From: a virus
Taxonomy: Duplodnaviria; Heunggongvirae; Uroviricota; Caudoviricetes
Virus record (IMG/VR): IMGVR_UViG_2579779049_000013
Coordinates: 1-13,158 of that record
Direction: 5' to 3' (one strand)
Length of the DNA: 13,158 nt
A program made the position numbers. Of this stretch, positions 1 through 3,000 are shown piece by piece. The number at the start of each line of letters is the position of its first letter. Position 1 is the first letter of the stretch.

Positions 1-3000
1 CGGCTCATGTCCTGCACATCATGCAGACAATGGTCCGCCGGAATGATGTCGTTATACTTACAGGCGGCACCTCCCGGTGTCACCGTACTGCGACGCGCTA
101 ACTGTTTAATTCGTGGATCAGGACTGTCGAATGTATCCGGTAATGGCAGTCCCTCACCGTATGACATACCATTGGACTGACCAGCAAGCGCGATCACATA
201 GTAATATTCTGGCGCAACAGAAGGCGCTGAGGTCGTCGGACGGTTGCCTGGCTCCTCTGGTGATGAGATGCTCCCCTCACTCACAACTGGCTGGATGAAC
301 TCCGCACCATAACCAGCTGTCGAAATCAGCGCACTACCATAAGGCTGCCACCCTTCCTTCAGTTTTTGAGTTATTCGTTTCGCAAGGTCTGACGGCGACG
401 CCGCCCTGACAACATCATAGTGTTTAAATGCCATGAATCCTCCCGGCCGGGATAATATTGTGAGTAAAATAAGGAGCGGGCTGAAGTCCGGAAGTTACAG
501 GACAATGGCAGAAGGGAGACTACAGCCCGCAATTCGAAAAAGGTCGCGCAGTTGCGCAGCCTTATGAATCCTGGTTAAAATGCTTTCGATTATTAAAACG
601 AGTATCTCATGCAATTGCCCGAACCCACTCGGGCTTTTTTACATGTAAAAAGGCCCCTGCTATGAGAGGCCTTGGTATATGCCTAATCTCTGTATACTGC
701 ATGGTGCCGGGTGCCTCCCGGTGAGTTCGGCCTGGTACCACCGAACCCGTGTCGATAATGAATCACAAGCAAGGATTTTTCACCAGTCGCCCCTCCACAC
801 AGGGGGATTCACCATGCGAAATTTTTTTAACAAATGCTCAGTCTGACAGGCAACTGTCAACTGACTGAATTGTGACACAGATTACACTTGTTACCCACAT
901 ACCACGAATCAGGTTATGCCTCAGTCATTATTAAACTGCACTTCAGCAAATCCGGAGCCTGATTCACAGGTACTGGATTTGATTGTGACAGTCATTCCTG
1001 TCAACTGAGCACTTTGCAGTAACGGTTGCAGATTCCAGCGACTGGTCCAGTATTCTTTCCCGTCAACCTTCACTGTAAATGTGTCATCCTCATTATACTT
1101 GGAAAACTCAATTTTACCTTTAGCACAATCCGCCGCCATTGCATTAACAGAAGCTAATGCAAATAAAACCGCCATAAACATCTTCTTCATGCTTAACTCC
1201 TTTATTTACCCGTTGTATATAAAAACTGTGACTTTCTGTTCAGAAACGCTGCAGCTGTATTACTTTCCCATAATGTATTGTTTATTTTTATAACGGGCCT
1301 GTCGCCAGTTATCTGACATTCTGGTTGACTCTCTTCATTCACGGCGCGAACAGAACGCGCCCCCTGATGATGGCAATTCAGTATAACGGCCACAGTCCCC
1401 AGTATCGCTGATATATTATTAAAGGATATTCTCCCCACTCTGACACCATCCTCTCCCCGATACTCCGGAAGCACATTGCTGATTCGCCCCCAGTTCAGAG
1501 TGAGGTCCACGTCTCCCGGCGTCATCGTATACACAGGAGCAGTTTCAGACAGTGCCTGACGAAATTCTCTCTGTATCTGCCTGAAGCGTAAGGCTTCTGC
1601 TGTGACAGTGACAAAACGCAGAACTGCTCTGGATGCATCTCTGGTCATTGTATTACCACTGAACTCCATTAACGCCAGATATGATGAAACCAGTGAGTGA
1701 CGACTGATTTGCATTCCGGAACGTTCCAGCGCTGCGACACGTTGCAGAGTGGTATAACTGCTGTCCGTTGTCATGGAAACCGTTGTCACACCGGGCACTG
1801 ATATATGTGTAAAATCTGAAAAACGGTAGAAAGTATTTGTTGCCGTATTAACGAACCCGGCCACATATAAATTATTTTGCTCAATAATCAGACGAAGATG
1901 GTCAAAACGCGCCTGATAGACATCAAGCCCTCGTATATCCACAGCAAAATAACTGCCCGGTGGGGTGTGGTTAATAACAGACACCGATGTGGTCCCCTGA
2001 GATATATGTTCAAGAGGGGTCGATATCTCTGTCCGTATACTATTTAACGAAGAGACATAACTTTGTTGGGTCGAAAAGTCTATCGTAAACTCCCGGGAAT
2101 AGGATACCGAAGAAAAACCCAGTAACAGGCACAGTACCCATTTAAATAATATACACTTCATATACAGGTGTTCCTTTTGGCTGAAGTAATCAGCACCAGA
2201 CCCGGCGCAGATATAAAAAAGGCCCGCAAAAGCGAGCCTGGTAAATAAATATGGCGCGTTGTACTGGATTCGGACCAGTGACCGATTGCTTAGAAGGCAA
2301 TTGCTCTGTCCGGCTGAGCTAACAACGCAGTGTGCAGATAATGGACCGCCATCGGGGACTCGAACCCCGCGCAACCAGCTTCGAAGGCTGACGCTCTGTC
2401 CCGATGAGCTAATGGCGGTATGTGATGGTGGCCCTTGCTGGATTTGAACCAGCGACCTGGCGATTATGAGTCGCTCGCTCTCACCACTGAGCTAAAGGGC
2501 CGGGCGCAGGATAATAACGGTACGTAACTAATTCTGCAATATCATCCGTTCTGACTGACTACATTCTGAACTTCCCTGACCGTCTGCTCAAAACGCCCGC
2601 TCTCCAGCTCAACGCCAATTGCACGACGCCCTAGCGCCATTGCTGCTTTGACGCTACGGACATAAAAAAGCCAGCCACTGGGGGAAGCTGGCAAACTCGT
2701 AGAGCAAAATGCTGTTACGCAAACTTCGTTACAGGGTTATCCTGCAATACTTAAAATATACAATATTTAGAAAACTAATAGTGCTATATGCGATTTTTAA
2801 GATTTTGTTATTAATTACGGTCGCACCTTCCTTTCTGTGTACTTTCCGTATAGCTCACAGGATTCGGGGTACAAAAAAACCCGCGCATCGGCGGGTTCGA
2901 CTGCGTGGCAATGTAACCACTCTTATCATGATATGCAGATTTTTACGATCGTAAACTATTTTTTCGCTGATAAAATACAGAGGTTCTCCCTCCCGGCAAT

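Follow-up and report, generated by a model that had tools for sequence, protein, structure and literature searches.

The interval between the Shiga toxin gene stxB and the esterase gene nanS-p, in the phage record IMGVR_UViG_2579779049_000013 (positions 1 to 13,158, here called the window), is almost certainly the published small RNA (sRNA) dyad of Stx2a phages, AsxR on the plus strand and EcOnc27 on the minus strand, located between stx2B and nanS-p. Nothing in the evidence contradicts this identification. The locus is already described in the literature, so that the result is a correct annotation rather than a discovery. An original prediction, made from the sequence, had placed one or more small RNAs with convergent terminators in this gap and had suggested AsxR as a possibility; Rfam and the literature agree with the former and show that the interval is exactly the AsxR locus. 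Two Rfam families exceed their gathering scores here. RF02076 (STnc100) matches 641-846 on the minus strand with 207.7 bits against a gathering score of 47 (E = 7.7e-49), and RF02703 (AsxR) matches 587-639 on the plus strand with 88.1 bits against 63 (E = 1.5e-13). At permissive E-values, nothing further that is credible was found by Rfam in 300-1100. The identity, coordinates, fold covariation and non-coding status of the two RNAs are established in this analysis. Expression, Hfq dependence, the AsxR-FnrS-chuS circuit and the rise of fimZ and espA transcripts were published by others on the identical sequence.

The window covers the early-to-late region of an Stx2a-converting lambdoid phage in reverse orientation, with its genes on the minus strand (Table 1). 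The whole window shows 99.2% identity, over 92% of its length, to Stx2a_F451, phiXuzhou21-Stx2a and Stx2a_F403, and its identity to Min27 is 99.1%. The gap itself measures 486 bp, one less than the 487 bp first given, and is 99.0% identical to 933W and 99.8% to phage phi345. Only five positions (516, 530, 534, 544 and 583) differ from Sakai Sp5 and 933W. All of them fall at 516-583, within the nanS-p leader and the region of the AsxR promoter; neither RNA is touched, and AsxR and EcOnc27 are each 100% identical to Sakai Sp5 and 933W. AsxR was published as lying antisense to stx2AB and 282 bp 3' of it in prophage Sp5, and EcOnc02 (AsxR) and EcOnc27 were explicitly described as convergent 3' of stx2B (Tree et al., 2014, PMC4104026). 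The same layout is found in the window. The distance from the end of the stxB stop codon (921) to the 3' end of AsxR (639) is 282 bp, in antisense orientation, equal to the published spacing. The 3' end of the STnc100 match at 641 faces that of AsxR at 639/640, with nanS-p lying downstream, and the two terminators stand tail to tail over the 16-nt palindrome TTTTTACATGTAAAAA (636-651). Both terminators had been predicted. The one on the stx strand is the STnc100 terminator, a minus-strand hairpin at 675-647 followed by UUUUU, and the one on the opposite strand is that of AsxR, a plus-strand hairpin at 617-634 followed by T6. Sequences matching 545-920 occur in 1061 of the 5426 complete Escherichia coli genomes, with at least 80% of the query covered in 544, and the RefSeq annotation of this interval in the matching genomes contains nothing.

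Table 1. Features of the window around the stxB/nanS-p gap
Feature	Positions	Strand	Basis or remark
Q	2943-3416	-	
Three tRNA genes	2252-2501	-	
stxA	between the tRNA genes and stxB	-	
stxB	921-1190	-	
Gap stxB/nanS-p	435-920		same length in Sakai
5' extension of EcOnc27 past the Rfam boundary (candidate)	847-888	-	northern sizes, conservation
STnc100-family core of EcOnc27/sRNA103	641-846	-	Rfam RF02076, covariation, published probe
AsxR (EcOnc02), 54-nt Hfq-dependent anti-sRNA	587-640	+	Rfam RF02703, terminator scan
Predicted sigma-70 promoter of AsxR	553-581	+	sequence
5' leader of nanS-p	435-552	-	sequence; Shine-Dalgarno GGAGG at 444-440
Start codon (ATG) of the nanS-p esterase	434-432	-	GGAGG ahead of it

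AsxR and its predicted promoter

The AsxR match spans model positions 1-53 of 53, and 53 of 53 nucleotides are identical to the consensus. The RNA consists of a variable 5' seed (approximately 587-601) and a conserved 3' body (602-640), the latter ending in a Rho-independent terminator (stem 617-634, U6 at 635-640) which a simple terminator scan flagged. Its fold has a z-score of -2.27. It shows the features of its family, namely a length of 51-60 nt, a conserved 3' part of about 42 nt with the terminator and, at the 5' end, a variable seed of 14-18 nt. Compared with the EcOnc03-like copy in comparison locus L004 and the AgvB copy in L006, the 3' 38 nt of AsxR contain two and three mismatches, respectively, and the 5' parts differ. 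The length of 54 nt is that listed in Table S2 of the original study, in which Hfq binding and Hfq-dependent stability were reported for the identical Sakai sequence (PMC4104026).

A sigma-70 promoter is predicted directly upstream, with -35 TTGCGC (553-558), a 17-nt spacer, -10 TAAAAT (576-581) and +1 at C587. A consensus promoter scan did not flag it, and its -35 matches the consensus at only 3 of 6 positions. The same -35/-10 layout and the CGAT start are kept ahead of the EcOnc03-like (L004) and AgvB (L006) copies, which is consistent with the proposed position. Primary 5' ends have been mapped by RNA ligase-mediated rapid amplification of cDNA ends (RLM-RACE; Tree et al., 2014, PMC4104026). 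On the opposite strand, a small conserved hairpin of the nanS-p leader, GCGCAGTTGCGC (547-558), overlaps the -35 element. This leader block is kept upstream of nanS-p in loci with different convergent sRNAs. In homologous records the gene behind it is named NanS or SASA family carbohydrate esterase. Within the same leader, Stx2a_F451 carries an ISEc8-type element of about 2.4 kb with three transposase open reading frames (ORFs) (L028 486-2929), and window positions 479-486 are duplicated at its two ends. The insertion spares both sRNA genes and parts the esterase gene from them.

The published function of AsxR is that of an sRNA sponge. It destabilizes FnrS, lowers its Hfq occupancy and derepresses chuS, as demonstrated with compensatory mutants (Tree et al., 2014, PMC4104026). 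In the window, nucleotides 1-11 of AsxR can pair with nucleotides 101-112 of FnrS, whose sequence was taken from K-12, through 11 bp with one bulge and two G-U pairs (-10.4 kcal/mol). As published, the pairing site lies on the terminator loop and 3' stem of FnrS. AsxR would thus have a promoter of its own, be read counter to the late operon and bind Hfq, its A/U-rich 5' end would pair with the loop and the 3' side of the FnrS terminator hairpin, and the resulting destabilization of FnrS would relieve the repression of the haem oxygenase gene chuS. In this way AsxR ties the Stx2 phage to haem-iron use by the host.

EcOnc27 and the STnc100 fold

The STnc100 match is full length and ungapped (model 1-206 of 206). 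The core is closed by a helix of GCAUGGUG with CACCAUGC (817-810 with 706-699), which encloses two invariant hairpins (805-790 and 721-707) and a covarying one (748-723). The 3' part consists of an A/U-rich linker, the terminator hairpin and the U-run. The two stem-loops quoted in the original prediction are found in this core on the minus strand, CCGGGAGGCACCCGG at 721-707 and GGTTCGG...CCGAAC at about 745-722. That prediction called the whole gap highly structured, which holds for one side of it. The minus-strand RNA 888-641 (248 nt) folds with -92.9 kcal/mol (z = -4.1), and none of 200 shuffled sequences folds as well, whereas the fold of minus-strand 640-434 is unremarkable (z = -1.4). The simple terminator scan missed the STnc100 terminator, in which only UUU follows the full 9-bp stem.

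The fold is supported by comparison with ten other phage loci of 68-99% identity and with a further set from a species-level genome scan. In an alignment of 12 sequences, 89.6% of the cells of the consensus fold are paired, against 38-50% in slid controls, and 10 base pairs show double changes. With 21 sequences the values are 88.3% against 40-49%, with 13 double-change pairs. Two of the 13 are in the closing helix (A-U to G-C and G-C to A-U), the variable hairpin has double changes in six of its seven pairs, and compensatory changes are seen in the terminator too. Two helices of the Rfam model (14-16/155-157 and 165-168/203-206) are weakly supported, with 61-78% paired in the 12 sequences, and its 3-bp hairpin with a 1-nt loop (model 92-98) does not form in the window copy. 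The two invariant hairpins and the junction GGUGAAUCC are almost unchanged, loops included, among E. coli, Shigella, Enterobacter, Leclercia and Klebsiella. What is swapped around the core is the 5' leader, one arm, the linker, the terminator and the partner sRNA.

This RNA is EcOnc27. The northern probe used for EcOnc27 by Tree et al., GGCCTTGGTATATGCCTAATCTCTGTATACTGCAT, equals window positions 668-702 exactly. EcOnc27 was reported as bands of about 235/247 nt (Table S2, PMC4104026), of which the 247-nt form is lost without Hfq, and it was bound by Hfq in crosslinking and analysis of cDNA (CRAC) (Tree et al., 2014, PMC4104026). After a coordinate correction of +135, the Hfq-CRAC cluster falls at about 643-722 of the window and includes the northern probe. 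It covers the last hairpin, the A/U-rich linker and the terminator. The offset was derived from the 282-bp statement of Tree et al. and the present end of stx2B. When the Table S2 coordinates were used unchanged on NC_002695.2, both RNAs were misplaced (EcOnc27 at 778-857), because these coordinates refer to an older version of the Sakai sequence. The placement of EcOnc27 near the end of stxB in PMC12711010, only partly overlapping STnc100, looks like the same offset problem. In later papers, EcOnc27 is taken to be sRNA103 of EDL933 and to correspond to the STnc100 annotation (PMC7873438, PMC12711010). A review also equates EcOnc27 with sRNA103 and terms AsxR/EcOnc27 a 'dyad', and one paper places STnc100 75 nt downstream of stx2, as in the window. 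In EDL933 the copy linked to stx2 is transcribed (STnc100_3, 206 nt, 660 reads per kilobase per million mapped reads).

At the 5' side, the conserved sequence runs about 30 nt beyond the Rfam boundary. This extension contains a conserved box TCACAATTCAG (875-865) and a -10-like TGTAAT (886-881), and in the minimum free energy fold it holds the 5' arm of a hairpin at about 868-837. Counted from an assumed 3' end at 641-645, the northern sizes of about 235/247 nt give a 5' end at about 876-888, and with the conserved 5' sequence taken into account it is likely to lie near 873-888. The box and a -10-like element are seen again upstream of STnc100 in loci with Stx1, with Stx2 and without Stx, in some of them directly after a terminator. 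Since the 5' sequence is thus conserved in unrelated contexts, the comparison favours an RNA on the stx strand that is independent or separately processed. Promoter regions at the Salmonella STnc100 copies have been reported from chromatin immunoprecipitation with exonuclease treatment (ChIP-exo) of sigma factors, RpoN among them. A sigma-54 promoter was looked for by eye upstream of EcOnc27 as GG-N10-GC, and none was found in the window copy.

That the gap encodes small proteins is highly improbable. The candidates are a 55-aa ORF on the plus strand (679-846), a 44-aa ORF on the minus strand (607-741), a 32-aa ORF and a micro-ORF from the AUG in GCAUGGUG. Hypothetical proteins are annotated here in some phage records, two of the ORFs have matches among PHROG families without known function, and ribosome footprints have been reported on several STnc100 copies. 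The PHROG families were probably built from ORFs called over conserved RNA. In tblastn against the homologous loci, the gap ORFs are broken by stops and frame changes at a DNA identity of 70-85%. The conserved blocks show no change at any of the three codon positions and fall on the covarying helices, and the indels of the variable arm are not multiples of three. Thus the conservation is at the RNA level, the coding reading was rejected despite the PHROG matches, and the earlier statement that the gap has no credible ORF is borne out.

Several points weigh against a pair of Hfq-dependent regulators. The duplex of AsxR with FnrS is weak and no better than those of shuffled seeds (p ~0.11), so that the mechanism rests on the published compensatory mutants. 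No direct target of EcOnc27 has been established in the literature. A consensus scan found no promoter for it, the candidate -10 hexamer is without the canonical -11 A, and both the 5' end at about 873-888 and the promoter are candidates. One study reported a coverage of the EDL933 STnc100 copy by ribosome footprints that is not negligible (RCV, the ribosomal coverage value, 1.51). Finally, two hairpins that are nearly invariant, loops included, as far as Enterobacter and Klebsiella are more than a seed-pairing sRNA needs.

The missing promoter and target would fit a structure that is only the 3' untranslated region and terminator of the stx2AB mRNA, with the Hfq-bound RNA as a product of decay or processing. 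Such an element would stabilize and insulate, halting pStx2 or leaky transcripts in lysogens. It begins about 35-75 nt past the stxB stop codon and ends in a terminator, and the two northern bands (235/247 nt) could come from processing. This is unlikely, as the same RNA with its 5' box also follows stx1B, unrelated morons and, directly, another terminator, and it occurs in tandem copies; STnc100 in such varied contexts is not a property of the stx mRNA. A covarying junction of 200 nt also far exceeds what a terminator needs, and promoter regions have been reported at the Salmonella copies, as mentioned above. The near-invariance of the closing helix, the two hairpins and the junction while their surroundings are exchanged, together with the constant place, with Q or a moron on one side and the esterase or lysis genes on the other, could instead suggest a cis-acting or protein-binding element of the late operon, serving processing, stability or interaction with RNA polymerase, for which Hfq binding would be secondary. 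We regard this as improbable. Neither a protein partner nor a cis phenotype is known, the RNA, ended by a functional terminator, builds up as a separate species that depends on Hfq, and its relatives PasD1 and PasD2 have many partners in RIL-seq, which ligates and sequences interacting RNAs. A trans-acting gene accounts no worse for the tandem copies and for those found in degraded prophages. There is a similarly small chance that the core is more than a base-pairing sRNA, namely a structured module with a protein or the transcription machinery as its binding partner, or with a cis effect on the late operon. In that case, the dyad could be a switch between lysogeny and lysis, in which Q-antiterminated read-through, antisense to AsxR, would remove AsxR.

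EcOnc27 as a regulator that most likely acts in trans and depends on Hfq remains our preferred account, its mode of action being deduced from the above. It would be an Hfq-bound RNA of about 235/247 nt, running on the minus strand from about 888/873 to 641 and made of the STnc100 multi-helix junction, a linker and a terminator, with Hfq crosslinked at the A/U-rich linker and the Rho-independent terminator. In lysogens, the terminator would also stop any transcription leaving stx2AB. When sRNA103 was overexpressed, fimZ and espA transcripts increased, without direct interaction being shown (Gruber and Sperandio, 2015, as cited in PMC7873438 and PMC12711010). A proposed regulation of stxB through pairing of STnc100 nucleotides 5-15 with its mRNA (PMC12370729) was not adopted. 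The match exists (11 bp including one G-U, at window 1004-1014), but such matches are not rare in the window; 0.32 of this quality are expected and three are seen, including the RNA's own site. In O157:H7, sequence variants in the EcOnc27 region were recently reported to predict haemolytic uraemic syndrome more strongly than any other genomic feature (PMC12711010). The window has the alleles of the Sakai/933W type, T at 832 and TTT at 819-821 on the minus strand; the corresponding letters in the Stx2c phage 2851 are C and TT. These two sites appear to be the reported predictive single-nucleotide polymorphism at +90 and the T deletion at +103. Speculatively, T832 may be the T of an extended -10 (TGtTAAAAA) in the conserved TTTGTTAAAAA motif.

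Recurrence of STnc100 and the convergent slot

The STnc100 family is present in all ten other phage loci at the same place, between Q or a moron (stx2, stx1 and others) and the esterase or lysis genes. In three of the ten, an RNA of the AsxR, AgvB or EcOnc03 type is convergent to it. The slot convergent to STnc100 is occupied by AsxR in this window and 933W, by an EcOnc03-type RNA in YYZ-2008 and by AgvB in PPyecE. In Stx2_130296, ASU11, PPwrbA and PhiR12_1 it holds an unrelated, terminator-bearing cassette of about 75 nt, with a variant in AU6Stx1. This cassette, ...CTTCACGTTTCATTGTTTATTCCTTGCCGCCCGCGTCTCCCAGCGCGGGCTTTTTT behind a TATTAT -10, lies at about 1640-1722 of L002 and at the same place in L003, L005 and L007 (variant in L011), and no Rfam family matches it at gathering level. 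The nanS-p leader block with its hairpin is common to all these slot types. The slot thus appears to carry interchangeable small RNAs, which matches the published notion of a dyad.

In a genome-wide pattern scan, the invariant hairpin was found at 13 loci only, of which three are chance matches in high-GC genomes and one is an assembly contaminant. The last is an 888-nt contig of Xanthomonas pisi DSM 18956 (Contig_80, L026), whose positions 394-653 give the same scores as the window (STnc100 207.7 bits, AsxR 88.1 bits); almost certainly it is Stx2-phage or E. coli contamination of the assembly. Two STnc100 copies per locus were seen in Enterobacter quasiroggenkampii, E. sichuanensis, Escherichia albertii and phage vB_EcoS-640R1 (L014 3418-3847, L023 6775-7212, L017 4825-5482 and L009 1031-1688). 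The Enterobacter copies are head to tail, about 25 nt apart, and have compensatory changes in helices that are otherwise invariant. The copies of E. albertii and 640R1 are on the same strand, about 275 nt apart. IpeX, an RNA beside the nmpC moron of DLP12, was also considered as a relative of STnc100 and set aside, as Rfam gave no hit of any family in 572000-580000 of K-12, the DLP12 region with quuD, nmpC and essD.

Elsewhere in the window, three Rfam matches at gathering level form a cluster at 5694-5891 on the minus strand, a C4 antisense RNA (5694-5778), isrK (5804-5878) and a c4 a1/b1 target element (5839-5891). The cluster lies just upstream of the Ant anti-repressor ORF (4963-5640) and looks like an antisense control region of the P1 immI type. 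The tRNA gene at 2426-2501 on the minus strand is called tRNA-Met (CAT) by ARAGORN and ileZ/ileX in phage records, that is, tRNA-Ile with a modified CAT anticodon.

Comparison with known systems

AsxR of Sp5/933W (RF02703) has the same sequence, strand, length, position, terminator and FnrS-pairing seed as the RNA of the window. The loci differ only upstream of the identical RNA, by C for A at base 583, between the predicted -10 and +1, and by four bases further upstream. EcOnc27/sRNA103 (RF02076) is likewise identical in sequence, contains the probe, is convergent to AsxR and has the same terminator; the 206-nt Rfam model of STnc100 is shorter than EcOnc27 on northern blots (~235/247 nt). AgvB (EcOnc01; RF02702) and EcOnc03, paralogues in other lambdoid prophages, share with AsxR the promoter architecture, the conserved 3' part of about 38-42 nt with the terminator, and the slot, but their 5' seed of 14-22 nt differs. 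AgvB carries the GcvB-target motif CACAACA, and AsxR scores 40.9 bits on the AgvB model, below the threshold of 56.

PasD1 and PasD2 of enteropathogenic E. coli E2348/69 are relatives of STnc100, and the many RIL-seq partners noted above come from their description (Zhu, Shabalina and Storz, 2026, preprint, 10.64898/2026.05.13.724894). They have diverged too far in sequence for BLAST to find them, and their proposed seeds and target sets are others. StxS (EcOnc15) is the other Hfq-binding sRNA flanking stx2AB in the same phage. It differs from the dyad in being a short pR' transcript upstream of stx2A, formed by early termination of the late transcript, and it targets rpoS and stx1B. The region that yields StxS, with tR' at about 2875-2900 and pR' at about 2933-2958 on the minus strand, was located in the window by transfer from the 933W record. 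Thus, with this region upstream and AsxR/EcOnc27 downstream, Hfq-binding sRNAs lie on either side of stx2AB.

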